Below are positions 2,644-21,154 of a stretch of DNA of 29,163 nucleotides, in pieces. Each line of letters starts with the position of its first letter. Positions within the stretch are counted from its first letter, which is position 1. The notes under the pieces are model-generated. The model worked only from the letters and a program-made list of their open reading frames with translations. It did not search any database and was not told the DNA's origin. Origin of the DNA: an uncultured Syntrophaceae bacterium (lineage in GTDB: Bacteria; Desulfobacterota; Syntrophia; Syntrophales; UBA2210); the NCBI GenBank assembly GCA_964579455.1, contig CAZOHQ010000001.1:1-29163 (forward strand), given 5' to 3'. The translations under genes were made by a program, and so were the position numbers.

Positions 2644-2954
2644 ATCTGATTCACCTCCTGAAAGAAGGGGGTAGTATGGCAGGATTAATTGCAGATTTAA
2701 AGTACTTTTTTTATACAGTAGAAAACATTTCTGAGGATTGACAGTCCCTCTCTGCCTTCGAGAAGACCCTCGCCTGTCCAGCCTGGTATGTCTCAAACCG
2801 TATATGCCGGGGGATGTCTTTATATCAACGTGAGCATGTACTTATTGCTATTTTCACATCATGTATATTCTGAGCATCAAGCTTGATCGTAAAGATTTTT
2901 GACGTTTTTACGTCAGAAACACGGAAAACACGAGGAGATCGAGTGCCTGCTTTC

Positions 2955-2998
2955 GCACATATCCGTAGATATCACCATGCAATCCTACGAAAATGTCG
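2955..2998. promoter_or_regulatory. Tandem putative enhancer (UAS) sites for a sigma54 activator
   Basis: GCACA-TATC-CGTAG (2955-2968) and CTACG-AAAA-TGTCG (2985-2998), 30 bp apart and ~90-135 bp upstream of the -24 element at 3089. Same motif and spacing at 17973/18003 and 19701/19731. Confidence 0.7.
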
Positions 2999-3087
2999 AT
3001 TATGGCAACGCCATAGTTAATTAAAGCTTGTGTTATTTAGACAATAATTACCGTTAGATCGGCATTATTTCTTTGCGGTGGTGTATA

Positions 3088-3102
3088 TGGCACCATAATT
3101 GC
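3088..3102 (+). promoter_or_regulatory. sigma54 (-24/-12) promoter
   Basis: TGGCAC-CATAA-TTGC, a consensus match with GG-N10-GC spacing. Confidence 0.85.
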
Positions 3103-3174
3103 GGTAGTGGTGCGAAAGGGCTTCTGCGCCCACGGGCCAATAGATCCGAATAATACAAGGTGAATGATACAAAT

Positions 3175-3591
3175 ATGAAACTGACTTCGAAGGGGGACAA
3201 GCCCATTGTTCTTTCCAGGATGCCTGTATATTGTAATGACCGCATTCTGATAGACGACAGTGAGTGGAAAACTGCTTTAGACTGGCAAAGCATCCATCGA
3301 GGTGATATAATTTTTGGTTCGTTCGATAAAAATCGAACGGTCTGCGGGCAATAATGCATATGTCAGTTTGATGATATGTAATGCGGCCGAAAGCTCTGTT
3401 AAGATCTGCGGATGCCGGGTCGGTTATGACGTTGGATATAGAGAGGTTATCTCTTCCCACCCAAAGGTAAAACCGAATCTGAATGCGGAAATCAGGGTGA
3501 GGGTTTCGTGAGAATGAGCCTGGCCGCGCCGGATGAGATGCCTGAAGAAGCAATTCAAAGCTTGAAAGATGTAATTAAAGACTGGTCTTAA
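3175..3591 (+). pseudogene. Degraded class I/II PLP aminotransferase remnant (LL-diaminopimelate aminotransferase DapL-like)
   Basis: Fragments in different frames. GCRVGYDVGYREVISSHPKVKPNL (from 3410) resembles DapL-type GWRxGFAVGNxEVIxxLGKVKSNxD. GNQGEGFVRMSLAAPDEMPEEAIQSLKDVIKDWS* (3487-3591) resembles the C-terminal GEGYxRxSL...EAxxR motif. About 420 bp versus ~1.2 kb for a full gene; PLP-lysine motif not found. The 5' boundary is uncertain. Confidence 0.55.
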
Positions 3592-3605
3592 AAAGGAGTC
3601 ATCTC

Positions 3606-5048
3606 GTGCAGTGTGATGGCAGTATTATAGAAGAATTGGAAGATCATCCCCGTGAATTTTGCGGTGTCTTCGGGATCTTTGGGGATCCCGATGCCGCGGA
3701 AAAAACCTACCTGGGACTGTACGCACTTCAGCATCGAGGACAGGAGAGCGCGGGAATCGCGGCGTCGGATGGGAAACAGATATCGCTCCACAGGGGAATG
3801 GGCCTTGTCTGGTCGGTTTTCCAGGATCCCAATATCATGCCGACACTTCGCGGTGCGTCTGCCATCGGGCACAATCGATACTCGACAACGGGCTCCTCGG
3901 ATCTTATGAATGCGCAACCTATTCTCATACGTTCCAGGGGCGAACAGATTGCCGCCGCCCACAACGGGAACCTGGTCAATTCCCGGGAACTTCACACCAT
4001 GCTTGAGGAACAGGGGGCAATATTTCAGACCACATCGGATAGCGAGATAGCCCTTCATCTCATTGCGAGATCGAAGAAGGCGACTATCGAGGAAAAGATC
4101 GAGGACGCCCTCTCACAACTGGAGGGTGCATACTGCTTCATCTTTCTTACCAATTCAAAATTAATCGCCGTACGGGACCCTCGGGGCTTCAGGCCGCTCT
4201 GTATCGGTAAGTTAGAAAATGCTTACGTTGTCGCCTCCGAATCATGTGCCTGCGATATCATAGGTGCCGAATACATTCGAAGCGTCGAGCCGGGAGAGAT
4301 CGTCGTCATCGATGAAAGCGGCATCTCTTCACGTTTCCTTAAAACAAAACCCAAACAATCTTCTTGTGTTTTTGAATATATATACTTTTCACGGCCCGAC
4401 AGTATCATCTTTGGCGAGAAGGTGGATAAGGCGAGGCGTATGCTGGGTAAAAGACTGGCCCAAGAGTCTCCCTGTGAAGCCGATATCGTAATCCCCATTC
4501 CCGATTCGGCCAATACCGCCGCCCTCGGGTATGCACAAGAATCGGGATTGCGCTTTGAAATCGGGCTGATACGAAACCACTACGTAGGTCGTACCTTTAT
4601 CGCACCCCACCAGAAGGCGAGAGATATGGACGTCAAGGTGAAATTTAATCCCGTGACCGGTGTATTGAAAGGGAAACGAGTTGTGGTAATAGAGGATTCC
4701 ATCGTTCGCGGTACCACCTTGAAGCAACTGATTCATCTCATCAGAAGTGCGGGTGCCGTGAAGGTTCATGTGCGTGTAAGTTCTCCGCCGATCATTTCTC
4801 CCTGCTTTTACGGGATTGACATATCGAGCCGTGGTGAGCTTATCGCTTCTTCTCACTGCGTGGAAGAAACGTGCCGCTATCTCGAGGCCGATTCCCTTGC
4901 CTATCTCTCGGTTGAAGGAATGCTGAGTGCCGTTCCCGAGGGAGAGCTTCAATGTACCGCATGCTTCACGGGAGAGTATCCGACAGAGGTTCCTCAAAAC
5001 TTCAGCAAGGATCTCTTCTCCGCTGATTGCGGGGAGATAGAAAAATAA
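3606..5048 (+). CDS. purF: Amidophosphoribosyltransferase (propeptide-bearing, Fe-S type)
   Basis: GTG start after AAGGAG; 18-aa propeptide then CGVFG; LQHRGQESAG, GHNRYST, AHNGNLVN, CVFEYIYFSRPDS, DSIVRGTT, SPCFYGID, CTACFTGEYP. Confidence 0.97.
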   Translation: MQCDGSIIEELEDHPREFCGVFGIFGDPDAAEKTYLGLYALQHRGQESAGIAASDGKQISLHRGMGLVWSVFQDPNIMPTLRGASAIGHNRYSTTGSSDLMNAQPILIRSRGEQIAAAHNGNLVNSRELHTMLEEQGAIFQTTSDSEIALHLIARSKKATIEEKIEDALSQLEGAYCFIFLTNSKLIAVRDPRGFRPLCIGKLENAYVVASESCACDIIGAEYIRSVEPGEIVVIDESGISSRFLKTKPKQSSCVFEYIYFSRPDSIIFGEKVDKARRMLGKRLAQESPCEADIVIPIPDSANTAALGYAQESGLRFEIGLIRNHYVGRTFIAPHQKARDMDVKVKFNPVTGVLKGKRVVVIEDSIVRGTTLKQLIHLIRSAGAVKVHVRVSSPPIISPCFYGIDISSRGELIASSHCVEETCRYLEADSLAYLSVEGMLSAVPEGELQCTACFTGEYPTEVPQNFSKDLFSADCGEIEK

Positions 5049-5068
5049 TTATTGATGGAAAAAGTATT

Positions 5069-6913
5069 ATGACAGTCGTAAAGCGTTCATACTGCGGGAA
5101 GCTGAGGCTTACCGATAAAGGCACTGAGGTACATCTGAAGGGATGGGTGGATGCCTTAAGGGATCATGGAGAGGTTCTTTTTATACATCTCCGAGACAGA
5201 AGCGGTATCGTGCAGGTAGTATTCAATCCCGAAGACACCCCTGCGAAGACATGCAGACAGGCCCAGTCGCTGAGAAGTGAATTCTGTATTTCAGTGAGAG
5301 GCTTTGTGAAAAAAAGGAATAAGGGAACGGAAAACCCGAATATCGAGACGGGCAAGATCGAGGTGGTTGTCTCTGATCTGGAAATTCTTAACCAATCCAA
5401 GCCACTGCCCTTTCCTATTTCGGAAAAGGCAATGGTCGCCGGTGCTGCCGTCGGGGATATCGGTTCGATAGCTGAAGATACGCGGCTACAATATCGCTAC
5501 CTCGACCTGAGACGCCCTACCATGCAGCGCAATCTCGTTATGAGGCACCGCATCACCAAATGTGTCCGCGATTATCTGGATGAGCATAGTTTTGTTGAAG
5601 TGGAAACGCCGATGCTGACAAAGAGTACTCCGGAAGGTGCCCGCGATTATCTTGTTCCCAGCCGCATCCACCCGAAACGATTTTATGCGCTCCCCCAGTC
5701 TCCCCAGCTTTTCAAACAGCTTCTCATGGTAAGCGGTATTGAACGTTATTTTCAGATCGCACGGTGCTTTCGTGATGAGGATCTGAGACCGAACAGACAG
5801 CCTGAATTCACCCAGCTTGACCTTGAGGCATCCTTCATCGAGGAGGAAACTATATATAACCTGATGGAAGAGCTTGTGGTGCGCATGTTTGCCGTGGGTG
5901 GCATTACCATCACCCTTCCCTTTCCACGAATGACCTGGGATGAAGCCATGGATTCGATGGGAACGGACCGGCCCGATGCCCGCTTTGGTCTCCGCTTTAC
6001 TGATGCCACCGATATCTTCAAAGATACCTCCTACGGCATATTCAGTCGAATAGTGCAAAAGGGCGGTTTTATAAAGGGGATTAACGTCAAGGGGCAGTCT
6101 GACAAGCTGAGCAAAAATGTCCTGCAGAATGAGTATGCGGGCAAGATCGTTCCCTCCTTCGGTGCAAAGGGTATGACCTGGATGCGGGCTATAGGGGAAA
6201 CACTGGAATCCAATATCGTTCAGTTTTTCAGCGAGGAAGAGAAGAAAAACATCAGAGAGCGTTTCAATGCCGAAGAAGGTGATGTTATCATACTCATCGC
6301 CGATACCTCTTACAAGGTTGTTTCATCGGTCCTGGGACAGTTGAGGATGCATCTGGCTCATCGGCTTGACTTAATTCCGAAAGATGAAGTATGTCCATTA
6401 TGGATCACGGAATTTCCGCTTTTTACTACGACAGGAAGAAGAATAACATCGAATCACCACCCCTTTACCGCACCGGACAGTTCCGATTTCGATCCGAATA
6501 ATCGAGAGGAACTCCTTGCCCTTAAGTCACGTGCCTATGATCTGGTTGTCAACGGCGAGGAACTCGGGGGTGGAAGCATTCGAATACATGACAGTTCCCT
6601 TCAGCAGAAAATATTTCAGGCCCTCGGTTTGTCCGATCGTGAGGTGAAGAAAAAGTTCGGATTTTTCCTGAAGGCCCTTGATTACGGAGCTCCGCCTCAC
6701 GGAGGCATCGCCCTCGGCATGGACAGGGTTATTTCCATGATACTGGGAACGGAAACCATTCGTGAAGTCATCGCCTTCCCGAAGAACCGAAGTGCCCATT
6801 GCCCCCTCAGTGAAGCGCCTTCTTCCGTCGCGCGCAAACAGCTATCCGACCTGGGTCTGCTCGATCTCGATAGCGGCAAATGGGTTGAGGGGAAAAAAAT
6901 TATAACGGGTTAG
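5069..6913 (+). CDS. aspS: Aspartate--tRNA(Asp/Asn) ligase, non-discriminating type
   Basis: OB-fold (GWV..LRDHG..FIHLRD), RYRYLDLRR-like motif, STPEGARDY, PQSPQLFKQ, FRDEDLR, GAPPHGG. His in RDHG and Gly in KGTENP are the non-discriminating signatures. Start ATG 5069. Confidence 0.95.
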   Translation: MTVVKRSYCGKLRLTDKGTEVHLKGWVDALRDHGEVLFIHLRDRSGIVQVVFNPEDTPAKTCRQAQSLRSEFCISVRGFVKKRNKGTENPNIETGKIEVVVSDLEILNQSKPLPFPISEKAMVAGAAVGDIGSIAEDTRLQYRYLDLRRPTMQRNLVMRHRITKCVRDYLDEHSFVEVETPMLTKSTPEGARDYLVPSRIHPKRFYALPQSPQLFKQLLMVSGIERYFQIARCFRDEDLRPNRQPEFTQLDLEASFIEEETIYNLMEELVVRMFAVGGITITLPFPRMTWDEAMDSMGTDRPDARFGLRFTDATDIFKDTSYGIFSRIVQKGGFIKGINVKGQSDKLSKNVLQNEYAGKIVPSFGAKGMTWMRAIGETLESNIVQFFSEEEKKNIRERFNAEEGDVIILIADTSYKVVSSVLGQLRMHLAHRLDLIPKDEVCPLWITEFPLFTTTGRRITSNHHPFTAPDSSDFDPNNREELLALKSRAYDLVVNGEELGGGSIRIHDSSLQQKIFQALGLSDREVKKKFGFFLKALDYGAPPHGGIALGMDRVISMILGTETIREVIAFPKNRSAHCPLSEAPSSVARKQLSDLGLLDLDSGKWVEGKKIITG

Positions 6914-6926
6914 GATCTGGTCCTGA

Positions 6927-8018
6927 ATGATGAAAGCATTACTTGTATTGGAAGATGGAAGATTTTTTGAGGGAACATCCTTTGGCGCCTCCGGGGAACG
7001 CTTCGGCGAGGTGGTGTTCAACACGGGGATGACGGGCTATCAGGAAGTCCTGACAGATCCGTCCTATAAAGGTCAGATCGTCGTAATGACCTGTCCCCTT
7101 ATCGGAAATTACGGAATCAATGAAGAGGATTCGGAATCACGATCCCTCTGGCTCGAAGGTTTCGTCATCAGGGAGCTGAGCGGCATAACCAGCAACTGGC
7201 GATCGCAAAAGGACCTTGCCACCTACCTCGAAGAACACAATATCATAGGCATCCAGGGTATCGATACCCGCGCACTGACAAAACACATCAGAACCAGGGG
7301 TGCCATGAGGGCCGTTATATCCACCGCCGACGATAACATCGATTCTCTCGTTGAAAAGGCATGCGCATCGCCCGGACTTGAGGGGATAGACCTCGTGGCG
7401 AGCGTGACCTGTGAAAAACCCTCTGTGTTGAACGGACAGGACGGACCGCGGGTCGTTGTCATGGATTTCGGCGTCAAACAGAGCATTTTGAATCAGCTCC
7501 GGAATGAGGGCTGCAATGTGACCGTTCTTCCCGCCCATACCTCGATTGATGAGATTATGGAGAGGGAGCCCGGCGGCATACTTCTCTCAAACGGTCCTGG
7601 AGATCCCGATGCCGTGAAATATGCGGTAGCCACGACAAAGAGACTTCTCGAGATGGGAACGATTCCGATCTTCGGTATCTGCCTGGGTCAACAGATTCTG
7701 GGCCTGGCACTGGGGGGGAGGACATATAAACTAAAATTCGGACATCACGGATCAAACCAGCCTGTCAAGGACCTGAAAACGGGGAAAATCGATATTACCG
7801 TTCAAAACCACGGGTTTTGTGTCGATATCGATTCTCTTGACAAAAAATTGATAGAGATGACCCATATTAACCTCAACGATAATACACTGGAAGGCTTTGA
7901 GCATAAAGAATTGCCTGCATTTTCAGTTCAGTTTCATCCGGAGGCTGGTCCCGGTCCTCATGATGCGCGATATCTGTTCCACCGGTTTGTCGAAATGATA
8001 ACAAGTTATGAAAAGTAG
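6927..8018 (+). CDS. carA: Carbamoyl-phosphate synthase small (glutaminase) subunit
   Basis: GEVVFNTGMTGYQE, LSNGPGDP, GICLGQQ (catalytic Cys), QNHGF, QFHPEA. Start may be 6927 or 6930. Confidence 0.97.
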   Translation: MMKALLVLEDGRFFEGTSFGASGERFGEVVFNTGMTGYQEVLTDPSYKGQIVVMTCPLIGNYGINEEDSESRSLWLEGFVIRELSGITSNWRSQKDLATYLEEHNIIGIQGIDTRALTKHIRTRGAMRAVISTADDNIDSLVEKACASPGLEGIDLVASVTCEKPSVLNGQDGPRVVVMDFGVKQSILNQLRNEGCNVTVLPAHTSIDEIMEREPGGILLSNGPGDPDAVKYAVATTKRLLEMGTIPIFGICLGQQILGLALGGRTYKLKFGHHGSNQPVKDLKTGKIDITVQNHGFCVDIDSLDKKLIEMTHINLNDNTLEGFEHKELPAFSVQFHPEAGPGPHDARYLFHRFVEMITSYEK

Positions 8019-8029
8019 GAGTGTGAGAA

Positions 8030-9568
8030 GTGAAAGAGACAGTTGCCGTATTTGATTTCGGATCACAGTACTCCCAGCTCATCGCCCGACGTATCAGGGA
8101 GATGGGTGTCTACTGTGAGATTGTCAGGCATGATATATCGAAAGATAAGCTGGCAGAGCTTGCTCCTGTAGCAGTGGTTCTTTCGGGAGGCCCCGCCTCA
8201 GTTCTCGACCCGGATTCGCCCTCCATGGACCGTGAGATACTCTCTCTCGATATACCCATACTGGGCATATGCTACGGTATGCAACTCATGGCACAGCTTC
8301 TCGGTGGTGTGGTGGAAAAGGGGAGGGGCGGAGAATACGGTCCCGCCTTGATTGAGACCTCAGGATCGACGGGTATATTTCAGGGAATGGAATCTCCTCT
8401 CCATGTCTGGATGAGTCATGGGGATCATGTAGAGACAGTTCCCGAAGGCTTTCTCGTGCTGGCGAGCACACATGATTGCCCGATCGCAGCTATGATGGAT
8501 ACAGCAGGGAGAATGTTTGGCATTCAGTTCCATCCCGAAGTGGTTCACACACCGAAGGGGGTCGAAATTATCAGAAACTTTCTCTTTCATGTGGCGGGAT
8601 GTGCGGGCGATTGGACCATGGGTCGATTCGCCGAAGAATCGGTGAAAAAAATCAGGGATACCGTGGGCGATTCCAATGTAATCTGCGGCCTTTCGGGCGG
8701 TGTCGATTCATCCGTTGCTGCCGCACTCATAAACAGGGCGATAGGTGGCCAGATGAAGGCCATCTTTGTGGATAACGGTCTCCTGCGGAAAGGGGAAGTG
8801 GATGAAATCCGCACCCTCTTTACCGAAGATTATAAGCTCAACTTCCGCATTGCTGACGCAAGGGTGAGGTTTGTCGATGCGCTGAGAGGGGTGATTGATC
8901 CCGAAAGAAAGAGGAAGATCATCGGCGAGACCTTTATCGATGTCTTTAGAGACGAGGCAGCGGGTGTCGAATCCGCCCGGTTTCTTGCCCAGGGAACGCT
9001 CTATCCCGACGTGGTGGAAAGCCAATCGGCCCATGGCGGACCCTCTTCAATGATCAAGAGTCATCATAATGTTGGAGGCCTGCCCGCTGATCTCCCTTTT
9101 GAACTCCTGGAACCGCTCAGGGAGCTATTTAAAGATGAGGTACGGGTGCTTGGGAGAGAGTTGGGATTACCGGAAAGGCTCCTGATGAGACAACCCTTTC
9201 CGGGTCCGGGCCTGGGTGTACGCATCGTAGGTGAGGTGACTGAAGAGTCCCTTGCCATACTTCGAGATGCCGATGTAATTGTTCAGGAAGAGTTGAAGGC
9301 CTATGAGGGATATGGAGATATCTGGCAGTCCTTTGCCGTTCTCCTCCCCGTTAAAAGTGTGGGTGTGATGGGTGATGAGCGGACCTATGACAACGTGGTG
9401 GCCCTGAGAATTGTCACAAGTCTTGATGCGATGACGGCCGACTGGGTCAAACTTCCCTATGAAATTCTGGGAAAGATATCTTCGAGGATCATTAACGAGG
9501 TAACGGGCGTGAATCGTGTCGTCTATGACATAAGTTCAAAACCGCCCAGCACCATCGAGTGGGAATAG
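8030..9568 (+). CDS. guaA: GMP synthase (glutamine-hydrolysing)
   Basis: DFGSQYSQLIARR, GICYGMQ, WMSHGD, QFHPEV, LSGGVDS, IKSHHNVGG, PFPGPGL, SKPPSTIEWE; GTG start after AGGAG. Confidence 0.97.
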   Translation: MKETVAVFDFGSQYSQLIARRIREMGVYCEIVRHDISKDKLAELAPVAVVLSGGPASVLDPDSPSMDREILSLDIPILGICYGMQLMAQLLGGVVEKGRGGEYGPALIETSGSTGIFQGMESPLHVWMSHGDHVETVPEGFLVLASTHDCPIAAMMDTAGRMFGIQFHPEVVHTPKGVEIIRNFLFHVAGCAGDWTMGRFAEESVKKIRDTVGDSNVICGLSGGVDSSVAAALINRAIGGQMKAIFVDNGLLRKGEVDEIRTLFTEDYKLNFRIADARVRFVDALRGVIDPERKRKIIGETFIDVFRDEAAGVESARFLAQGTLYPDVVESQSAHGGPSSMIKSHHNVGGLPADLPFELLEPLRELFKDEVRVLGRELGLPERLLMRQPFPGPGLGVRIVGEVTEESLAILRDADVIVQEELKAYEGYGDIWQSFAVLLPVKSVGVMGDERTYDNVVALRIVTSLDAMTADWVKLPYEILGKISSRIINEVTGVNRVVYDISSKPPSTIEWE

Positions 9569-9577
9569 TTACCGTTT

Positions 9578-12500
9578 ATGCCAAAACGTACTGATATAAA
9601 AAAGATTCTGATTATCGGTTCAGGACCTATCGTCATCGGACAGGCCTGCGAATTCGATTACTCCGGCACTCAGGCCTGCAAGGCTCTCGTCGAAGAGGGA
9701 TACGAGGTGGTACTCCTGAATTCGAACCCGGCCACCATTATGACGGATCCCGAGATGGCCGACAAGACCTATATTGAACCGATAACGGCAGATATAATCG
9801 AGAAAATCATCGAGAAGGAACGTCCCGATGCCGTCCTTGCCACCATTGGCGGTCAGACGGCACTTAATACGGCCGTTGAGGCCGCCGAACGGGGGATCTT
9901 TGAACGATATCATGTGGAGATGATCGGGGCCGATCTGCCGGCCATCAAGAGGGCTGAAAACAGGGATGAATTCAAAGCGGCGATGGCGGAGATCGGACTC
10001 GATGTCCCCAGGAGTGAGGTGGCCCATTCCATGGAGGAGGCCCGAGAGGTCGCGGATGATTTGGGCTTTCCCCTTGTCATCCGTCCCAGCTTTACCCTCG
10101 GTGGTACCGGCGGTGCCCTGGCCTATAATGCCGAGGAGTTTGAAGACTGCGCCTCCTATGGTATCGAACAGAGCATGATAAACGAGATCCTCATAGAGGA
10201 ATCTGTCCTCGGGTGGAAGGAATACGAACTGGAAGTCATGCGTGATCATAAGGACAATGTGGTCATTATCTGTTCCATAGAAAACTTTGACGCCATGGGG
10301 GTTCACACGGGTGATTCCATCACCGTCGCCCCTGCCCAGACACTTACGGACAGGGAATATCAGTATCTTCGCAATGCATCCATTGCAGTCATTCGAAAGG
10401 TGGGAGTTGCCACGGGGGGATCCAATATACAATTTGCCGTAAATCCCGAAACGGGACGTGTGGTGGTTATCGAGATGAATCCCCGGGTTTCGAGATCCTC
10501 TGCCCTGGCATCGAAGGCGACCGGATTCCCCATTGCGAAGATTGCCGCAAAACTTGCCGTCGGTTACACCCTCGATGAAATCCCGAATGATATTACGAAA
10601 CAGACTCCGGCATCCTTTGAGCCAACCATCGACTACTGCGTGGTCAAGATACCCCGTTTCGCCTTTGAAAAATTCCCCGGCGTGGAAGACACCCTCACCA
10701 TATCGATGAAATCGGTGGGGGAAACCATGGCCATCGGCAGGACCTTCAAAGAGGCGCTCCAGAAAGGGCTGAGGGGGCTTGAAACGGGCCTGAACGGGCT
10801 TGACCGAAACAGAGGAGATGCCTGTGAATACAGTGATGCGCTTCTCACCCGTCCTACTGCGGAGCGGCTTTTTCACATACGATGTGCCATAGAAAAAGGC
10901 ATGCCCATCGACCGGATAGCGGAGCTTTCGGGAATCGATCCCTGGTTTCTCCAGAATATCAAAGATATCGTCGATATGGACACAACGATCGGGGGCTTCA
11001 GGGGTGGGGGTACACTCCCTCCGGATATCATGAAAAAGGCTAAGAAATTCGGATTTTCAGACCGACAGATAGGCAACATTATGGGTATGGATGAATCCCG
11101 CATTCGGACCATGAGGGAAAAGGACGGGATAACGCCGGTCTATAAGCTTGTCGATACCTGTGCCGCCGAATTTGAAGCCTATACGCCCTATTATTACTCT
11201 ACCTATGAGGAAGAAGATGAAAGCAGGGGGAGCGAAACCAGAAAAGTAATGATAATAGGCGGCGGCCCGAACAGGATTGGGCAGGGGATAGAATTCGATT
11301 ACTGCTGTGTTCATGCCTCGATGGCACTGAGGGAAGCAGGGTATGAGACGATAATGGTAAATTCCAATCCTGAAACGGTATCCACCGATTACGATATTTC
11401 GGACAGGCTCTATTTTGAACCCTTAACGCTGGAGGATGTTCTCAATATCGCCCGGACGGAAAAGCCCGAAGGCGTCATCGTGCAGCTTGGCGGGCAGACA
11501 CCCCTGAATCTGGCTTTGCCCCTGGCGCAGAACGGAGTGAAAATACTGGGAACGTCTCCGGAGGCCATTGACCGGGCCGAAGACAGAAAACTCTTCAAGG
11601 AAATGGCCGACAAACTGGATATCAGACAACCCGCAAACGGCACGGCGATCTCATTTGAAGAGGCCGAAGAGATAGTGGAAAGAATCGGGTATCCCGTGCT
11701 GATTCGACCTTCCTATGTGCTCGGTGGAAGGGCCATGGTAGTGGTCTGGCATCAGGAAGATCTCAGGGGATTTGTGAAGGAAGCTTTTGAGGCATCACCG
11801 GATCACCCCATACTGATAGACAAATTTCTCGAAGATGCCCTTGAGGTGGACGTCGATGCCGTTTCCGACGGAATCGACGTTATCATAGGCGGCATTATGG
11901 AACATATTGAGCACGCCGGCATTCACTCGGGGGACAGCGCCATGGTTATTCCCTCCTATTCGATCAAACAGGAAATGCTGTCGGAGATAAAGGATGTGAC
12001 GAGGCGTATGGCCCTCGAGCTTGAGGTAAAGGGCCTTATCAACATCCAGTTTGCCGTTAAGGGTGATGAGCTCTATGTGCTTGAAGTAAACCCCCGGGGG
12101 TCGCGCACCGTTCCCTTTGTATCAAAGGCTACCGGCGTGCCTCTGGCCAAGATCGCCACAAGAGTAATGGTCGGTCAGTCCCTCAAGGATCAGGGAATAT
12201 TCAAGGATCCTGAACCCCGGTATTTTTCGGTCAAAGAATCGGTTCTTCCCTTCACGAGATTTTATGGCGCCGATACACTTTTGGGCCCGGAGATGAAATC
12301 CACGGGTGAGGTAATGGGGATCGATCCCGATCTCGGAGTGGCCTTTGCGAAGAGCCAGATTGCCGCCGGGCAGAGCGTCCCAGATTCCGGGAAGGTATTT
12401 ATCAGTGTCAAGGACTATGATAAACGTGAAATTGTAGAAATTGGGAAAAAATTCGAGGATCTTGGGTTTGAGATACTGTCAACACCAGGCACGGCACAAA

Positions 12501-12793
12501 CGCTCAGGGAAAGTGGCGTCTCTGTCACACAGCTCCCCCGCCTTGACGAAGGTCGGCCGAACCTCCTGGACTATATCAAGAACCGGAATGTCGATCTTCT
12601 GATCAACACCCCGAGCGGTCCGAAACCGAGACGAGACGAGATTAAGATTCGAAGCACGGCACTCTCCCGTAATGTGCCACTTGTTTCAACCGTCGCCGGA
12701 GCCAAGGCTATGGTTAACGCCATCGATGCTCTGAGACGTCAGACACTGACGGTACGGTCACTGCAGGAGATATATCGCAGCACGGACCGGTAA
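9578..12793 (+). CDS. carB: Carbamoyl-phosphate synthase large subunit
   Basis: [30 protein letters not shown], two ATP-grasp halves (HTGDS / HSGDS), C-terminal MGS domain; 1071 aa. Confidence 0.98.
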
Positions 12794-12866
12794 TGTAATT
12801 CCCGGATACGGGGATATATACACCACACAAAGGTACCATGTTGTATTGAAAAGGGGGCATGCAGTC

Positions 12867-15800
12867 ATGAGTCAGAAATCAACAACCGCCAGAGGGACCA
12901 AGGAGCTATCGCTCCTGTGGGAGGTCAGTCGGGTTCTGGAACAGGGCAACGATGTGAAAAAAATAGGGATGCCCATCCTCCGTGCCCTCGATAAATTCAT
13001 GGGTATGTCGAGGGGTTTTATTACACTCCTGAACAGGGAAACGGGAGAGATCTTCATCGAGGCCGCTCACGGCCTTTCCAAGGCGCAAAAAGAGAGAGGA
13101 AAATATAAGATAGGGGAAGGTGTTGTCGGTAAGGTGGTTGAAACGGGAAGACCCATGATCGTGCCCAAGATTTCCGATGAGCCATTGTTCCTGGACCGAA
13201 CGGGGGTGCGTAAAAATCTTCCGAAAAAGGATATATCGTTCATCTGTGTCCCCATAAGAAATCAGAACGAGGTAATAGGCACGCTCAGTGCAGACAGGGT
13301 GTTCGATGAATCGATCTCACTGAAAGAAGATCTTCGGCTTCTCACCATTATTGCCTCAATGATCGCCCAGGCGGTCCGTCTCCTTCAGCAGGAAGAAGAG
13401 GATCGTCATCGTGCGGTGGAGGAGAAAGACCGTCTGGACAGAAGGGCCTCCAAAAGCCTGCATCTTGTCAGTACGGGCCATGAATTCCTCGATACTATCA
13501 TCAATGGCTTGAGAATCGGGGATAACGTGGTCTGGCAGGTGGATGATCTCGAAGATTACAGATATGTCGCCGGGCTCTTTGTTGAAAGGTCTCTAAAGGA
13601 AAAAAAGAAGCTCGTCTATATACGATTTGCCGATCACGCGCCCCTTGTAAAACCCGGGCAAGAGGTGGTCACCTATCACCTGAATCCGGCAAGCGGCTTT
13701 GAGACATTCTCGACGGAAGTATACAATATTATTACAAAAGAAGGGACAGGCGTTAATTATGTCTTTGACTGTCTCTCCAACCTCCTTTCGGAATGGTCTA
13801 CCGATCTGATGGTGGGAAATTTCTTTGTTATAACCTGTCCCTATCTCTTTGAATTGGATACCATCGCATATTTTGCCGTCATCAGGGGGAATCATTCCTT
13901 CCAGACGATTGCCCGGATTCGTGAAACAACACAGGTGCTGCTCGATCTTCACAACGACAAGGGGACTCTCTATATTCATCCCCTCAAGGTCTGGAAACGG
14001 TATTCTCCCACCATGTTTCTTCCCCACAAGAAGGAGGGGGATGAATTTGTACCGATAATAGACAGTGTGGATGCCGCAAATTTATTTTCCAACATGTCAA
14101 AAAAGAAATTAGAACATGGCGAGAGGAGTCTTGACTATTGGGACAGGTTGTTCATTGAAGCCGAAGGTCTGCTTGAAAAGCCCTGGGAATCGGAAAAAGA
14201 AGAGGACATGATCGACAGGATATGCAGGATCATGATCACCAGGGAGCCCAGAATGTCTATCCTCGTAAAGGACAATTTTTCTCTCGAAGATCTCTTACGG
14301 ATACGGGAGAGATTGATCGGTACCGGTTTTCTCGGGGGAAAAACGGGAGGAATGCTCCTGGCCAGGAAAATTCTGGAACTCGATAAAAACTTTGACTGGC
14401 CATCAATCCTCGAGGAGCATGATTCCTTCTATATAGGGTCCGATGTCTTCTACACCTATCTGGTTCAGAATAACTGGTGGAAACTGCGAATGGAGCAGAA
14501 GACACAAGGGGGCTACTTCAAGGCGGCCCGCATCCTCCGGGATAAAATGAAGAACGGGACTTTCCCCGATGAAGTGAGGGAACAGTTTTACAGGATGCTG
14601 GAATATTTCGGGCAATCACCCATTATCATACGCTCCAGTAGTCTGCTGGAAGATTCTTTTGGAAATGCCTTTGCCGGCAAATATGAGAGCATCTTTCTCG
14701 TGAATCAGGGGGCTCCTGAGGAACGATACGCCCAGTTTGAGAATGCCGTTCGCACAATATACGCCAGTGCCATGAATGAGAATGCCCTGGCCTATCGAAA
14801 GCAGAGGGGTCTTGAAAAGGCTGATGAACAGATGGCCCTTCTCGTGCAGCGTGTCTCGGGATCACATCATAAGAATTATTATTTCCCAGATCTCGCAGGG
14901 GTAGGTATCTCCCATAACACCTTCGTGTGGAATAAGGAAATGGATCCAGAGGCGGGCATACTGAGGCTCGTATTCGGACTCGGAACAAGGGCGGTGAACA
15001 GGGTTGAAGGAGATTACCCCAGAATCGTCGCATTGGACCTTCCCCTTTTGAAACCCCATGGGGGGATGGAAGATACGAGGAAATTTTCTCAACGCGACGT
15101 GGACCTTCTCGATCTCGATCGAAACGGCTTGACGACGAAGTCGGTTCTTAAGCTGTCGGGCGAAGGCCTTGACATAAAAATGGAAAGAATTGCAACAAGA
15201 GATCACGAAACCGATCGGAAGATACGAGAACTTGGCATAAAAGATCAACAAGCATGGGTGTTGACCTTTGACGATTTTTTATCGGATACTCAATTTACCG
15301 ATGTGATGCACAGGATGCTCAAGAAGCTGGAAACAATCTATGACTATCCGGTTGATATAGAATTCACGATGAATTTTACCGATGAAGATGATTTTAAGAT
15401 CAATCTGGTACAGTGCAGGCCTCTTCAAAGACAGGGAGAAGGGAAGAGGGTTGAATTTCCGAAGAATGTCGATAAGGAAAATATCCTCTTTCAATTTGAA
15501 GGCAATTTCCTCGGCGACGGCATTATGGAGTCTGTTGACAGGATTATTTATGTTGACCCGGCACAATACACACAATTGAGTCAGCAGAACAAATATGAAA
15601 TTGCCAGAATCGTGGGGAGACTGAACCGGCAGATCGAGAACAGAGAAAATCTCCATGTCATGTTGCTTGGCCCGGGCAGATGGGGTTCAACGACACCCTC
15701 GTTAGGAGTTCCAGTGGGATTTTCCGAGATAAACAACATCTCGGTGTTGGGTGAAATTGCCTATTCGGACGGAAATCTTATGCCCGAGCTGTCCTATGGT

Positions 15801-16034
15801 ACCCATTTCTTCCAGGACCTTGTGGAGACAAATATCTTTTATATAGCCATTTTCCCGGGTGAAAAAGATGTGATCTTCAATGTGCCATGGCTGGAAAAAT
15901 TTACCAATAAGATGGATGAATTTGTCCCTGATTTTGTCCAATACCGGGATGTTGTGAAGGTTTTCGATACCAGTGAAGAGAATCTGCAGATACTGGCAGA
16001 CATTGTACAGAGAAAGGTGATTTGCTATTACTAA
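12867..16034 (+). CDS. Multidomain protein: NifA-type GAF + KaiC/RecA-like segment + PEP-synthase/PPDK N-terminal (ATP-grasp) domain + C-terminal GPGRWGS/GTHFF domain; function unknown
   Basis: ATG 12867 after AAGGGGG. Residues 13-172 are a GAF closely similar to that of the activator at 18146. From residue 199, STGHEFLDTIINGLRIGD resembles a KaiC-like N-terminus. PPDK_N motifs: GGKTGG, IRSSSLLED..AFAGKYES, MALLVQ, GLGTRAV, PVDIEF, VQCRPL. No pyruvate-binding barrel. Confidence 0.85.
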   Translation: MSQKSTTARGTKELSLLWEVSRVLEQGNDVKKIGMPILRALDKFMGMSRGFITLLNRETGEIFIEAAHGLSKAQKERGKYKIGEGVVGKVVETGRPMIVPKISDEPLFLDRTGVRKNLPKKDISFICVPIRNQNEVIGTLSADRVFDESISLKEDLRLLTIIASMIAQAVRLLQQEEEDRHRAVEEKDRLDRRASKSLHLVSTGHEFLDTIINGLRIGDNVVWQVDDLEDYRYVAGLFVERSLKEKKKLVYIRFADHAPLVKPGQEVVTYHLNPASGFETFSTEVYNIITKEGTGVNYVFDCLSNLLSEWSTDLMVGNFFVITCPYLFELDTIAYFAVIRGNHSFQTIARIRETTQVLLDLHNDKGTLYIHPLKVWKRYSPTMFLPHKKEGDEFVPIIDSVDAANLFSNMSKKKLEHGERSLDYWDRLFIEAEGLLEKPWESEKEEDMIDRICRIMITREPRMSILVKDNFSLEDLLRIRERLIGTGFLGGKTGGMLLARKILELDKNFDWPSILEEHDSFYIGSDVFYTYLVQNNWWKLRMEQKTQGGYFKAARILRDKMKNGTFPDEVREQFYRMLEYFGQSPIIIRSSSLLEDSFGNAFAGKYESIFLVNQGAPEERYAQFENAVRTIYASAMNENALAYRKQRGLEKADEQMALLVQRVSGSHHKNYYFPDLAGVGISHNTFVWNKEMDPEAGILRLVFGLGTRAVNRVEGDYPRIVALDLPLLKPHGGMEDTRKFSQRDVDLLDLDRNGLTTKSVLKLSGEGLDIKMERIATRDHETDRKIRELGIKDQQAWVLTFDDFLSDTQFTDVMHRMLKKLETIYDYPVDIEFTMNFTDEDDFKINLVQCRPLQRQGEGKRVEFPKNVDKENILFQFEGNFLGDGIMESVDRIIYVDPAQYTQLSQQNKYEIARIVGRLNRQIENRENLHVMLLGPGRWGSTTPSLGVPVGFSEINNISVLGEIAYSDGNLMPELSYGTHFFQDLVETNIFYIAIFPGEKDVIFNVPWLEKFTNKMDEFVPDFVQYRDVVKVFDTSEENLQILADIVQRKVICYY

Positions 16035-16176
16035 ACAATCACTTTTAGACAGGTGATCTCTGGCAGAAAAACCGAAAATTACTCTCTTTCTTACTGCCAC
16101 ACTTGCGGGATCCCGTGATTACGGCGTATGACTGAGGGGATCTGAAACGCTACACAGTATGCTCGAGCTATCGAAC

Positions 16177-16224
16177 CCGATACCCTGGATCATGTGATAT
16201 GTTGCCATAATCCAGGGATATCGG
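16177..16224. terminator. Inverted repeat between convergent genes; possible bidirectional terminator or stabilising hairpin
   Basis: CCGATA-CCCTGGAT (16177-16190) pairs with ATCCAGGG-A-TATCGG (16210-16224): a 14-bp stem with one bulge. No clear poly-U tail. Confidence 0.5.
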
Positions 16225-16252
16225 TGACCTTCTGATTGCTTTAATTCCTTTG

Positions 16253-16591
16253 TTATCCGATTGCCGGCCCGCCCCGCTCGCCGGTTCCGATTCTGACCAC
16301 CTCGTTAAGATCAAGGACAAAAATCTTTCCATCGCCAGGTTTGCCGGTGTGTGCACCTTTTTCAATGGCACCAACGGCGAGTTCCGCAAAATCCTCGTTT
16401 ACGGCAATCTCGATCTTTATTTTTTTGAGGAGACCGATCTCCTGGATACCCCGGTACACTTCGGTGTAGCCCTTTTGTCTTCCTCTTCCCAGAACATTAG
16501 AGACGGTGATTAAATGGACCTCAACGTTTTCAAGTTCCTTTCTTACCTCATCAAGCTTATGCGGTTGTATGATCGCTATGATATATTTCAT
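16253..16591 (-). CDS. glnK: Nitrogen regulatory protein PII
   Basis: GRGRQKG, EVYRG, TGKPGDGKIFV; 112 aa; directly downstream of amtB. Confidence 0.95.
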   Translation of the reverse strand: MKYIIAIIQPHKLDEVRKELENVEVHLITVSNVLGRGRQKGYTEVYRGIQEIGLLKKIKIEIAVNEDFAELAVGAIEKGAHTGKPGDGKIFVLDLNEVVRIGTGERGGPAIG

Positions 16592-16600
16592 GTTTTTCTC

Positions 16601-17827
16601 CTATTCTAAGATGGTGTATGCTGACTCGTGGTGCTGGGTCAGGTCAAGTCCTACCAGTTCATCTTCCCTGTCGACCCTCATACCGAAGATGGCATCTACA
16701 ACCTTATAGAGAATCCATGTCACGATGAGCGCATAAGCAATGCATGCAACGAGGTAAAATCCCTGAATGAGAAAGAGTTCTACATTACCGAAAAGAAGGC
16801 CATTTGCCCCAGCTTCGTTTATAACCTTTTCAGCAAAGAGCCCTGTAGCGAGAGTGCCCCACATTCCCCCTACACCATGGACACCAAAAACGTCAAACGC
16901 ATCATCGTATCCAAATTTTGCTTTTACTGCGGTTACAGCCATATAGCAGATCATGCTGGCTATTATTCCTATCACGATTGCCGAGAGAGGGCTGACGAAT
17001 CCGCAGGCAGGTGTGATGGCAACAAGGCCGGCGAGCGCGCCGGTGACAATACCAAGCGTCGTAGGAGCTCCGTGCCGCTGCCATTCAATCAGTGCCCAGG
17101 TAACACCGGCAGCGGCTGCTGCCGTGTTGGTGGTGACAAAGGCATTCGCGGCGAGGCCTCCTGCCCCCAATGCACTGCCCGCATTAAATCCGAACCATCC
17201 GAACCAGAGGAGCGCGCCTCCCAGAACCGTCAAAGTCAGATTGTGAGGTGCAAAACCATGGCCATTGGTTCGTATTCTTTTCCCGATAAGGATTGCCATC
17301 AGGAGTGCGGAAACCCCGGAACTGACATGGACGACGATTCCCCCGGCGAAATCGAGCGCCCCGAGATTACTCAGCCATCCACCTCCCCATACCCAGTGAG
17401 CGATCGGATCATACACAAAGGTTGTCCATAGAAGCATCATTATTACAAAGGCGGAAAACTTGATTCGCTCGGCAAATGCTCCAACGATCAGGGCCGGTGT
17501 GATAATGGCAAACATGGCCTGAAATATCATAAAGACAAGGTGCGGAATCGTGCCTGAATAATTGCCGTCCGGTTCGAATCCAACCCCTCTCAGCCCCGCC
17601 CACTGGAGACTTCCGATAATTCCGTGCACGTCCGGTCCAAAGGCGAGAGAATAACCGAAAAGGACCCATTGCAGACTCATGAGACACATTATGAAGTAAC
17701 ACTGCATCAGTACAGACAGCATATTCTTCCTTCGGGCCAACCCTCCGTAAAAGAGGGCAACGCCCGGCGTCATGATGAAAACGAGAGCGGCACAGGTCAT
17801 CACCCATGCGGTATCACCAGTATTCAT
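16601..17827 (-). CDS. amtB: Ammonium transporter
   Basis: FQAMFAIIT, AHWVWGGG, DFAGGIVVH, LWFGWFGFNAGS, DVFGVHG (both pore His, Phe gate and Trp retained); GGAGG RBS. Confidence 0.97.
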   Translation of the reverse strand: MNTGDTAWVMTCAALVFIMTPGVALFYGGLARRKNMLSVLMQCYFIMCLMSLQWVLFGYSLAFGPDVHGIIGSLQWAGLRGVGFEPDGNYSGTIPHLVFMIFQAMFAIITPALIVGAFAERIKFSAFVIMMLLWTTFVYDPIAHWVWGGGWLSNLGALDFAGGIVVHVSSGVSALLMAILIGKRIRTNGHGFAPHNLTLTVLGGALLWFGWFGFNAGSALGAGGLAANAFVTTNTAAAAAGVTWALIEWQRHGAPTTLGIVTGALAGLVAITPACGFVSPLSAIVIGIIASMICYMAVTAVKAKFGYDDAFDVFGVHGVGGMWGTLATGLFAEKVINEAGANGLLFGNVELFLIQGFYLVACIAYALIVTWILYKVVDAIFGMRVDREDELVGLDLTQHHESAYTILE

Positions 17828-17879
17828 TGTACGACCTCCAGTATAACAATTTTTAATATTTTCTACGATCCAGTACCTA

Positions 17880-17894
17880 TCAATATCCGTACCA
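17880..17894 (-). promoter_or_regulatory. Putative sigma54 promoter for amtB-glnK
   Basis: Minus strand TGGTAC-GGATA-TTGA: correct GG spacing, with -12 GC changed to GA. About 53 nt from the amtB start; UAS pair 80-125 bp upstream. Confidence 0.6.
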
Positions 17895-17972
17895 AATGAT
17901 ACTGGTATTCATATCTATTTGATAATATAATAAATCTATCAAAATCTCTTTTAATAAACCGCTAAGACAATG

Positions 17973-18016
17973 CTACATTGCCGTAATTAACATTGGATAA
18001 AATAACAATTATGTAG
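17973..18016. promoter_or_regulatory. Tandem putative enhancer (UAS) sites between the divergent amtB and activator genes
   Basis: CTACA-TTGC-CGTAA (17973-17986) and TAACA-ATTA-TGTAG (18003-18016), 30 bp apart. Confidence 0.7.
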
Positions 18017-18145
18017 TATTCTCCATCCTTATCAATGTGACGGTCGAAATGAAGGCAGCAAGTGAAGGTGGTTACTCTGTATTTGCTACAGCCCTGTTAA
18101 TGGGATACAGGGCAGGCTGGTAACTTACACACGAGGAGCATGAGG

Positions 18146-19708
18146 ATGGAGCAGAAGGAAAAGCATAAAGCAACCCGGAAGAGCAGGGAAATGAGTGAAC
18201 TTTCCTTGCTCTACGAAGTCAGCCAGGCCCTTGGTCGAAGCCTGGAAATTCGAGAAGTGACAGGACCCGTATTAAATGCACTGGCGGAGAAAATGGGTAT
18301 GACACGGGGGACACTGACACTCCTCAATAGAAACAGTGGAGAGATGTTTATAGAGATAGCCCACGGATTATCCGAGATGCAGAAAAAGAAGGGACGATAT
18401 CAGATAGGCGAAGGAGTTACCGGCAAGGTAGTGGAAACCGGCCAGCCAGTAATCGTTCCCCACATCTCCGATGAACCCCTTTTTCTGGACAGGACGGGAT
18501 CACGAAAAGATCTTAACAAAACGGACATTTCTTACATCTGTGTCCCCATAAAAATTGGAACGGAGGTCATCGGGGCCCTCAGCGCCGACAGGCTCTTTGA
18601 CGAGACCATATCCCTAAAAGAGGATGTACGACTCCTTTCGATTATTGCATCCATGGTAGCCCAGGCAGTTCGGCTTCGCCAGGAGACACAGGAAGAACGT
18701 GAACTGCTGATTCAGGAAAACCTGCGCCTGCAGAGCGAATTGAAAGAAAAGTTTCGTCCCTCGAATATCATAGGCAAGTCCAAGGGAATACAGGAGGTAT
18801 ATCAACTCATTGCCCAGGTATCCAACAGCACTGCCAACGTATTGATCCGGGGTGAAAGCGGGACAGGCAAAGAGCTTATAGCAAATGCCATTCATTTTAA
18901 CAGTATGAGGGCCAGTAAACCCCTGGTCAAGGTCAATTGTGCCGCACTCCCCGAAACGGTCCTCGAAAGCGAGCTTTTCGGTCATGAAAAGGGAGCTTTT
19001 ACGGGAGCCACTTCCTTGAGAAAGGGGCGATTTGAACTGTCTCATGGGGGGACAATATTTCTCGACGAGGTGGGAGATCTTCCCCCAATGGTACAAATAC
19101 GGCTTTTGAGGGTCCTCCAGGAACGCGAATTTGAGCGGGTGGGCGGAACCCAGACGATGAAAATCGATGTGCGGGTGATTGCAGCGACAAACAGGAATCT
19201 GGAAACATTGATGGAAAAGGGAGATTTCAGGCAGGATCTCTACTATCGGCTCAATGTATTCCCCATCTATGTGCCCCCTCTCAGAGAACGGAAATCTGAC
19301 ATTCTGCTTCTCACCGACTTCTTTGTGGAACGGTACGCCAGGGCAAATAATAAGAGGATTCAGCGAATCTGTACCCATGCCATAGACATGCTTATGAGTT
19401 ATCACTGGCCGGGTAATGTCAGGGAATTGGAAAACAGTATTGAGCGGGCAGTCCTTCTCAGCAATGAGGGTGTGATCTATGGATATCATCTTCCCCCCAC
19501 GCTGCAGACCTCTGCATATTCAGGAACGATTCCCTATGGAACGCTTCAGGGCGAGGTTGACCGATATGAGCGCGATCTCATAATGGATGCCCTGAAGACC
19601 TCAAGGGGAAACATGTCAAGGGCTGCGAAAATTCTCGGTACCACGGAAAGAATCATCGGATTGCGGGCCCAGAAATACGATATAGACTCTAAGCGCTTTC
19701 GTACATAA
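18146..19708 (+). CDS. NifA-type sigma54-dependent transcriptional activator (GAF-AAA+-Fis HTH)
   Basis: N-terminal GAF, GESGTGKE, GAFTGA, FLDEVGDL, WPGNVREL, C-terminal HTH (RGNMSRAAKILG). Start 18146 is preferred to 18140 on RBS spacing (GAGGAG at 18133-18138). Confidence 0.95.
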   Translation: MEQKEKHKATRKSREMSELSLLYEVSQALGRSLEIREVTGPVLNALAEKMGMTRGTLTLLNRNSGEMFIEIAHGLSEMQKKKGRYQIGEGVTGKVVETGQPVIVPHISDEPLFLDRTGSRKDLNKTDISYICVPIKIGTEVIGALSADRLFDETISLKEDVRLLSIIASMVAQAVRLRQETQEERELLIQENLRLQSELKEKFRPSNIIGKSKGIQEVYQLIAQVSNSTANVLIRGESGTGKELIANAIHFNSMRASKPLVKVNCAALPETVLESELFGHEKGAFTGATSLRKGRFELSHGGTIFLDEVGDLPPMVQIRLLRVLQEREFERVGGTQTMKIDVRVIAATNRNLETLMEKGDFRQDLYYRLNVFPIYVPPLRERKSDILLLTDFFVERYARANNKRIQRICTHAIDMLMSYHWPGNVRELENSIERAVLLSNEGVIYGYHLPPTLQTSAYSGTIPYGTLQGEVDRYERDLIMDALKTSRGNMSRAAKILGTTERIIGLRAQKYDIDSKRFRT

Positions 19709-19744
19709 AAGTAATTACCGAAGCATAATCCTACATAATGGTGG
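19701..19744. promoter_or_regulatory. Tandem putative enhancer (UAS) sites upstream of the glnA promoter
   Basis: GTACA-TAAA-AGTAA (19701-19714, overlapping the activator stop codon) and CTACA-TAAT-GGTGG (19731-19744), 30 bp apart. Confidence 0.7.
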
Positions 19745-19841
19745 AATTTTTTAGCATATCCACCGTCATTTTCTCTCGTTACATTGGCAGAACATCAGTT
19801 AATACATGACTATAGATCATGTTTTTTCAAACTGATGACTT

Positions 19842-19856
19842 TGGCACTAAAGTTGC
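19842..19856 (+). promoter_or_regulatory. sigma54 (-24/-12) promoter
   Basis: TGGCAC-TAAAG-TTGC consensus match, 30 nt upstream of the glnA remnant ATG. Confidence 0.88.
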
Positions 19857-21137: not shown

Positions 21138-21154
21138 ATTAATGGAGGGGCGGT

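Follow-up and report, generated by a model that had tools for sequence, protein, structure and literature searches.

A 29,163-nt contig of an uncultured Syntrophaceae bacterium (CAZOHQ010000001.1, assembly GCA_964579455.1; hereafter the window) carries six short palindromic sites, which stand as three tandem pairs upstream of the sigma-54 promoters of the purF operon, amtB, and the glnA operon. A first-pass annotation had taken these tandem palindromes for upstream activator sites of sigma-54 promoters, and sequence comparison with related loci supports that view. Very probably, all six are enhancer sites for the NifA-family activator whose gene spans 18140-19708, so that nitrogen control would be shared by three transcripts.

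Paired palindromes and their promoters

The six 14-mers lie where the annotation had placed them. Each matches CTACA-N4-TGTAG at 7-8 of 10 positions, and AC-N6-GT is present in all six. Strengths are given here as matches to this consensus and as bits from a matrix built from other genomes. Upstream of the purF operon, the distal site is GCACATATCCGTAG (2955-2968; 7/10, 10.6 bits) and the proximal site CTACGAAAATGTCG (2985-2998; 8/10, 13.8 bits). The divergent spacer between amtB and the activator gene holds the proximal site of the amtB promoter, CTACATTGCCGTAA (17973-17986; 8/10, 11.3 bits), and, nearest the activator gene, the distal site TAACAATTATGTAG (18003-18016; 8/10, 10.1 bits). At the glnA operon the distal site GTACATAAAAGTAA (19701-19714; 7/10, 11.9 bits) shares bases with the last codons of the activator gene and with its TAA stop, and the proximal site CTACATAATGGTGG (19731-19744; 8/10) is the best in the window at 15.1 bits. 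The extension AATnCTAC(A/G) was likewise confirmed on four sites, namely 2985, 17973, 19731, and, on the reverse strand, 18003.

The whole window was scanned for TGGCAC-N5-TTGCW, scored out of 11. Two of the three -24/-12 elements proposed earlier are the top two matches: the promoter of the glnA operon, TGGCACTAAAGTTGCT (19842-19857, plus strand; 11/11, predicted start ~19868), and that of the purF operon, TGGCACCATAATTGCG (3088-3103, plus strand; 10/11, predicted start ~3114). The third, upstream of amtB (TGGTACGGATATTGAT, 17879-17894, minus strand; 9/11, predicted start ~17868), is better called sigma-54-like, as its -12 part reads TTGA and not TTGC. The GG and GC dinucleotides, ten bases from each other, are both present at 3088 and 19842; at 17894 on the minus strand GG is kept, but GA stands at -12. 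From the centre of the proximal site to the first base of the promoter, the distance is 86 bp at amtB, 96 bp at purF, and 104 bp at glnA.

Three pairs at exactly 30 bp occur in the window, as had been claimed, compared with none in 300 window shuffles. Single sites by the rule of the annotation number 22, against 8.2 in dinucleotide-preserving shuffles. When the three intergenic regions were shuffled, the mean was 0.0005 for pairs spaced by exactly 30 bp and 0.01 for any spacing of 15-60 bp. The annotation had named a high frequency of such pairs in shuffled intergenic DNA as fatal to its proposal, and they are not frequent there. With the external matrix, the six sites take ranks 1-6 of about 29,000 positions (10.1-15.1 bits), and the next position scores 9.4 bits.

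Several other candidates were set aside. Single sites at 12823, 12833, 3167, 3457, and 17863 (7.8-9.4 bits) were treated as background; they are unpaired at 30 bp and are not top sites in orthologues. A perfect palindrome, TGACGtttttaCGTCA (2900-2915), lies 40 bp upstream of the purF enhancer and was not found in the related purF contigs L081-L088, and a second palindrome near this enhancer, TATGGCaacGCCATA (3001-3015), is not conserved in L083-L085. The motif differs from the canonical NifA site, as the annotation had noted: TGT-N10-ACA does not occur in the three upstream regions, and neither do NtrC-like sites (GCAC...GTGC).

For comparison, the loci of the 80 best relatives of the activator (62-93% identity) were fetched. 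They span about eight phyla (Syntrophales, Desulfomonilaceae, Desulfarculus, Hydrogenedentota, Nitrospirales, Spirochaetes, Planctomycetes, Latescibacter, and Anaerolineales), and the nearest relative, with 93% amino acid identity, is L001, from a Syntrophales metagenome-assembled genome. The matrix was built from 128 paired sites in these loci, with the window excluded. Its consensus is cCTACa-wwww-tGTAGg, with the information mostly in TAC and GTA, and the motif is much clearer in the orthologous loci than in the window. Sites of at least 8 bits are spaced at 30 bp (n = 48), 31 bp (n = 23), or 32 bp (n = 14), with scattered singles otherwise; 106 pairs were collected, comprising 63 at 30 bp, 25 at 31 bp, 15 at 32 bp, and 3 at 29 bp. 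Together with the three pairs of the window this gives 109, and a -24/-12 match follows 30-140 bp downstream in 81 of them. The distance from the centre of the proximal site to the promoter clusters at ~84, ~95, and 105-107 bp, and the three distances in the window coincide with these modes. The promoters in the loci are of the form TGGCAC-N5-TTGCT and stand before amtB, glnK, glnA, a gene for a secreted protein, and asnB. The proximal site is the stronger in 50 of 78 pairs (Wilcoxon p 0.005). Helical phasing of the distance from site to promoter is suggestive, with a small Rayleigh p that is dominated by one cluster of related loci. Exact sequence patterns recover only 2-9 matches in loci with about 110 known pairs.

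Because the matrix had been started from the consensus of the annotation, an unseeded dyad test was also run. Every dyad of a 4-mer and its reverse complement, with a gap of 0-12, was tallied in the stretch 30-200 bp ahead of 87 strong sigma-54 promoters of the 80 loci, with 4800 random segments as background. Of the 3328 dyads, CTAC-N6-GTAG ranked highest (25/87 versus 47/4800, p 2e-29), and the next dyads, TACA-N4-TGTA, TACC-N4-GGTA, and CCTA-N8-TAGG, are other registers of the same palindrome.

The same pairs recur, nearer to consensus, in orthologous spacers, where the annotation had allowed that they might be missing. Between the activator gene and glnA, a pair is present in all of L001-L007, for example GTACGTAGATGTAG-N16-CTACATAGATGTAG in L002 and GTACATAAAAGTAG-N16-CTACATCTTTGTAG in L004; L008 clearly keeps only the proximal site. 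Proximal sites at this position across L001-L008 read CTACATAATAGTAG, CTACATAGATGTAG, and similar, and after the pair the glnA promoter is kept at 10/11 or 11/11 in all eight. In the amtB spacer, the proximal site at 17973 is conserved in L001, and the distal site at 18003 has the L001 counterpart CGACATTATTGTAG at the same place. The amtB promoter of L001 has one spacer base changed and the same TTGA as in the window; L003 has a perfect TGGCACCATATTTGCT at the equivalent position.

Contigs L081-L089 were retrieved via relatives of PurF (L082 is the same contig as L001). A pair with a 9-11/11 promoter precedes purF-aspS-carA-(guaA)-carB in L081-L085 (PurF 81-90% identical), and a pair with a promoter precedes dapF-aminotransferase-purF-carA-guaA-carB in L086 and L088 (70-75%). 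L087 keeps the pair and has no strong promoter match; in L089 (65%), neither pair nor promoter was found before purF. In an overall tally of eight related loci, six are counted with both pair and promoter, and the promoter taken by itself is conserved in L082-L086 and L088. The gene order of the operon in the window recurs behind this enhancer and promoter in L082-L085. The distal site in L082-L085 is TCGCACATA(T/A)C(T/C)GTAG, and proximal sites in the orthologues, such as TCCTACGAAAATGTAG and TCCTACAGAAATGTAGG, reach 18-20 bits. Because pair and promoter are kept in related purF loci, the predicted control of this nucleotide amidotransferase operon is conserved in a Syntrophales-level clade and is no accident of one window.

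The activator protein and its linkage to the sites

The activator contains the Pfam domains PF01590 (GAF), PF00158, PF25601, and PF02954 (a Fis-type helix-turn-helix (HTH), HTH_8). The sigma-54 interaction domain PF00158 matches with an E value of 3.9e-73, and 'EKGAFTGAT' can be read in the translation. Its best solved relative is the NifA structure 9qq6_C, which aligns over the full length (E 7.7e-115), and the structure of the Aquifex Nlh1 GAF domain, 4g3k, aligns to residues 20-192. The family TIGR01817 ('nif-specific NifA') scores 540.1 bits against a cut-off of 528.85, over profile positions 3-435 of 534 only; since the alignment stops there, the DNA-binding end of the activator lies outside the match. 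With TGT-N10-ACA absent from the three upstream regions and no nif genes seen in the window or among the inspected loci, the label 'nif-specific NifA' was rejected. Membership of the NtrC family was rejected as well, as the N-terminus is a GAF domain and Pfam finds no receiver domain, although the protein may act in an NtrC-like manner at the enhancer.

The proposed link between motif and neighbouring GAF-AAA+-HTH gene is tight in the 80 loci. A pair lies at or just past the stop codon of the activator gene in 43 of the 74 loci with enough sequence, and in 33 loci the pair begins 7 or 13 bp before the end of that codon. The distal palindrome is then written into the last codons of the gene, either as ...F-R-T-stop or as ...F-R-T-x-x-stop with TAG inside GTAG. 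In many of L001-L063, the TAA or TAG stop itself belongs to the palindrome. The HTH helix TERIxGLR is conserved throughout the family, and the palindromes lie 84-109 bp upstream of the promoters in the window and the loci.

A pair is also found within 350 bp upstream of the start of the activator gene in 22 of 77 loci, mostly at 50-80 bp (30-130 bp in a side listing), with no recognisable sigma-54 promoter in between. Upstream pairs at exactly 30 bp include L021 9910, L043 9929, L061 8118, and L066 4690. Their position suggests autoregulation, possibly repression.

Sites, spacing, conservation, promoter positions, linkage, and activator domains are results of computation. Binding of the activator to the sites is inferred from linkage and position, and the oligomer, the looping, the sensed signal, and the direction of the response belong to a likely mechanism modelled on the known action of NtrC and NifA. 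A dimer of the Fis-type HTH would sit on each 14-16 bp palindrome cCTACa-N4-tGTAGg, which fits such a dimer because its half-sites are one helical turn apart. The spacing of 30-32 bp within a pair is about three turns, so that two neighbouring dimers would lie on the same face of the DNA and would seed the active AAA+ ring. By DNA looping the ring would reach sigma-54 RNA polymerase 84-109 bp downstream and would drive ATP-dependent promoter opening. Nitrogen status is probably sensed by the GAF domain, which would gate activity via 2-oxoglutarate and/or GlnK (P-II). The predicted regulon has three parts, namely amtB-glnK, the transcript that starts at a dead glnA and continues with amidotransferase, glutamate-synthase-like, and pyrG genes, and the purF-aspS-carA-guaA-carB-GAF/PPDK_N operon.

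Predicted target operons and competing explanations

The genes of the window were assigned with NCBIfam and Pfam. On the minus strand, glnK (P-II protein, 16253-16591) and amtB (ammonium transporter TIGR00836, 16601-17827) form the amtB-glnK operon (16253-17827). The activator gene (GAF, sigma-54 AAA+, and HTH_8 domains) lies on the plus strand and is followed by a glnA remnant (19886-20409). Gaps of only -26 to 68 bp suggest that the plus-strand genes make up two long operons.

glnA had been listed as a target, and its promoter and enhancer are intact. The gene itself, however, is a pseudogene remnant by translation and by alignment with L001, whose glnA is intact (443 aa). It has an in-frame TAG at 19919-19921 (codon 12) and a frame shift, and it has lost ~880 bp internally, with the deletion junction at ~20126-20144, at a CTGGCGG microhomology; 67 bp of the 5' leader are also absent relative to L001. 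The loss may be genuine or may have arisen in assembly. Downstream, on the plus strand, are a class-I amidotransferase gene (20406-21137), three glutamate-synthase-like genes (21155-25903), and pyrG (25972-27591). These genes (20406-27591, gaps -26 to 68 bp) are probably on the same transcript as the remnant, and their order is the same in L001-L006 and L008.

Targets in the 80 loci were counted as the first long open reading frame (ORF) downstream of a pair plus promoter. amtB is the commonest (23 cases), followed by glnA (18), a secreted protein of ~300 aa with no Pfam family (9), glnK (2), the activator itself (2), and the asparagine synthase gene asnB (1, in L003). amtB, glnA, glnK, asnB, and the activator itself are functionally sensible targets. 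The secreted proteins are ~250-320 aa long, have a signal peptide and a YVWRG-like motif, and are often encoded upstream of amtB; they are the first gene after the activator in L021, L030, L034, L036, L045, L049, L050, L055, and L057. This family may be an outer-membrane ammonium channel.

The purF operon (3606-16034, plus strand, gene gaps -22 to 52 bp) comprises purF (GTG start, 3606-5048), aspS (5027-6913), carA (6927-8018), guaA (8030-9568), carB (9578-12793), and a gene for a 1062-aa protein with GAF and PPDK_N domains (12846-16034). The annotation had put purine, pyrimidine, tRNA-charging, and cell-wall amidotransferase genes under one control. The shared element at this operon, kept in relatives, bears out part of that claim. 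The window has no cell-wall amidotransferase (glmS), however, and the gene so named is purF, which is glmS-like only in its N-terminal domain; the 'tRNA-charging' gene is indeed aspS, but it is not an amidotransferase. The last protein of the operon is conserved in L001. Its PPDK_N part is a PEP-synthase-like ATP-binding domain, and its GAF domain is 63% identical to that of the activator (E 3e-85); the protein could represent a second output of this sensor.

Upstream of this operon are genes for an iron alcohol dehydrogenase (591-1763) and dapF (1810-2796), both on the minus strand, and an 809-bp intergenic gap (2797-3605). The purF leader in this gap is similar in L082 and L083 and much shorter (~250 nt) in L084 and L085. 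No Rfam family was found in the whole window at gathering thresholds, nor in 3090-3640 at E values up to 1, and a comparison of 2797-3650 with the 80 loci by tblastx and blastn likewise returned no match. A 64-aa ORF at 3160-3354 was rejected as a gene, as it has no Pfam match and its frame is not kept in L083. Nearly every gene near the activator (3606-27591) makes or uses glutamine: purF, carA/B, guaA, pyrG, the class-I amidotransferase, the glutamate synthase parts, and glnA. aspS joins this theme, as it feeds the Asp-tRNA(Asn) amidation route. The region is an unusually complete 'glutamine' gene neighbourhood.

A number of points weigh against assigning all six sites to this activator. The sites in the window are degenerate (7-8/10), and several right half-sites are weak (GTCG, GTAA, GTGG). 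The amtB promoter is without the -12 C, and an integration host factor (IHF) consensus (WATCAR-N4-TTR) was not found between sites and promoters in the three regions. The left half of the distal glnA site falls in the activator codons F-R-T-stop, so its conservation could partly be coding constraint. Between the purF promoter and purF, a leader of ~490 nt (within 3104-3605) leaves room for other control. The 80 loci are mutually related, and their counts are not independent events; the matrix and the pair lists grew from the consensus of the annotation, and the dyad test alone is independent of that seed. The assignment of the sites to the neighbouring gene is, moreover, guilt by association.

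That last point opens the way to a reading in which the tandem palindromes are real but are recognised by another protein, such as a different enhancer-binding protein or a nitrogen repressor, and the NifA-like gene is a co-regulated neighbour. About 40% of loci have no pair at the activator stop at the threshold used, and the link between activator and sites is an association. Several nitrogen regulators may also coexist: in L085, an NrpR-like gene (PF08461 and PF01995) and a glutamate dehydrogenase gene at 4506-5555 lie divergent from the purF operon, and this archaeal-type nitrogen repressor may be present together with the sigma-54 system. The NrpR operator, however, is GGAA-N6-TTCC and differs from the motif. 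The sites stand at the standard enhancer distance from sigma-54 promoters, which need an enhancer-binding protein, and the motif tracks one gene over about eight phyla, often overlapping its stop or preceding its start, with a conserved HTH matched by a conserved motif. Recognition by another protein is thus improbable. A chance origin of the pairs, as matches in intergenic DNA chosen post hoc, can practically be dismissed. The consensus was defined from the same six imperfect sites, and the intergenic DNA of the window is AT-rich, but the shuffles of window and intergenic DNA, the top six ranks with an external matrix, the conservation in orthologues, and the unseeded dyad test all refute chance.

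It might also be that the amtB and glnA pairs work and that the purF pair is a relic or duplicate of the activator-glnA junction with little effect, which would leave the nucleotide genes outside nitrogen control. The enhancer regions of purF and glnA in the window are identical at 31 of 48 positions by manual count, including TTTCG(C/T)ACATA. The purF distal site, gcTTTCGCACATA, is non-coding and yet resembles the terminal coding sequence of the activator at the glnA copy, a hint that the activator-glnA junction was duplicated to give the purF enhancer. The long leader with no known RNA family and the purF of L089, which lacks such sites, fit a relic as well. A relic would decay, however, and the proximal sites at purF are stronger in relatives than in the window. 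Pair and promoter are kept before purF or dapF-purF in L081-L086 and L088, over 70-90% PurF identity, and the pair also in L087; asnB, which likewise encodes a glutamine amidotransferase, has the same arrangement in L003. We therefore regard an idle purF pair as unlikely and prefer the reading in which the activator acts at all three promoters.

Known systems and biological meaning

The motif has a precedent, as a very similar palindrome and an overlapping nitrogen regulon are predicted for DVU1949 of Desulfovibrio vulgaris. This regulon was derived by comparative genomics in Desulfovibrionales and includes amtB-P-II-glnD, two glutamine synthetases, glutamate-synthase-like operons, and the operon of DVU1949 itself, with predicted 16-bp sites such as GTTACATTTTTGTAAT, TTTACATTTTCGTAAC, and TTGACATTTCTGTAAG (Kazakov et al. 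2015, BMC Genomics 16:919, PMC4641369). Both regulators are single-component GAF-AAA+-HTH activators with a TACA-N4-TGTA core and several sites per sigma-54 promoter, and amtB, glnA, and glutamate-synthase genes are target classes common to both. The outer base, however, is T in DVU1949 sites (tTACA...TGTAa) and C in the family of the window (cCTACa...tGTAGg), and the published offsets give spacings of ~32, 41, 45, and 52 bp instead of a fixed 30-32 bp. purF, carAB, and guaA are not among the reported DVU1949 targets. The DNA-binding segment of DVU1949, ...GWIQHKAARELGLTPRQMGYRIRQW, is of the classical NifA type, whereas that of the activator in the window reads ...GNMSRAAKILGTTERIIGLRAQKY; over this 42-residue segment alone, about a third of the residues are shared by eye. 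The 80 best relatives include no Desulfovibrio sequence. As the DNA-binding segments differ, the two activators are candidate orthologues at most, and the likeness may instead reflect convergence. Each of the two regulons has been predicted by computation.

The E. coli glnAp2 enhancer has two strong sites for NtrC dimers about three helical turns apart, near -140 and -108. NtrC sites ~100 bp upstream of a sigma-54 promoter seed a looping AAA+ oligomer, and the targets include glnA and amtB-glnK. The tandem sites, enhancer distance, and target genes of the window run parallel to this system. NtrC differs in having a phosphorylated receiver domain in place of GAF and in its site, TGCACC-N5-GGTGCA, which is absent from the three regions. 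Classical NifA shares the domain order and the full-length alignment to 9qq6_C, but the targets in the window are ammonium assimilation genes and amidotransferases. A related precedent is Nlh1 (AQ_218) of the non-diazotroph Aquifex aeolicus, a NifA-like GAF activator whose GAF structure matches that of the activator; it reportedly binds ~100 bp upstream of glnBA, a result ascribed to Studholme et al. 2000. Geobacter GnfM, a receiver-domain regulator, belongs to a different system and was rejected as a counterpart. In Leptospira, the GAF sigma-54 activator EbpA, which is required when nitrogen is limiting, binds in front of amtB and of two genes for lipoproteins (PMC12655853). Spirochaete loci are among the 80 relatives, and secreted proteins of no Pfam family are among the targets, which recalls EbpA; EbpA is, however, described as FhlA-like with two GAF domains (PMC12655853).

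Novelty is limited, because the general design had already been predicted in Desulfovibrio, where a GAF activator with a palindrome of TACA-N4-TGTA core would have amtB, glnA, and glutamate-synthase genes as its targets. What seems to be new is the C-type variant of the motif with its strict pairing at 30-32 bp, its spread with one activator family over many phyla, the enhancer site embedded at the stop codon of the activator's own gene, and the recruitment of the purF-carAB-guaA operon, probably with pyrG via the glnA transcript. A wider interpretation, which we hold only tentatively and think rather doubtful, is that the activator is the master regulator of a Syntrophales 'glutamine economy'. 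It would then govern ammonium uptake and assimilation together with most glutamine-consuming enzymes (purF, carAB, guaA, pyrG, asnB, and glutamate synthase, with aspS for the Asp-tRNA(Asn) route), and the GAF/PPDK_N phosphotransfer enzyme, with its copy of the sensor, would respond to the same signal as a post-translational arm of the system.

To our knowledge, no nitrogen regulator is known for Syntrophales, Desulfomonilaceae, Hydrogenedentota, and others of these lineages. A single motif, a single spacing rule, and a single family of activators provide a concrete and testable regulon for uncultured bacteria, and motif and spacing can be used to annotate sigma-54 nitrogen control in genomes from metagenomes. 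Gene names would also be corrected, as automatic 'nif-specific NifA' calls in these lineages would denote regulators of ammonium assimilation that use another DNA motif. It would be an unusual wiring for a sigma-54 promoter under nitrogen control to drive amidotransferase genes of purine and pyrimidine synthesis, and one that ties nucleotide synthesis to the supply of glutamine.

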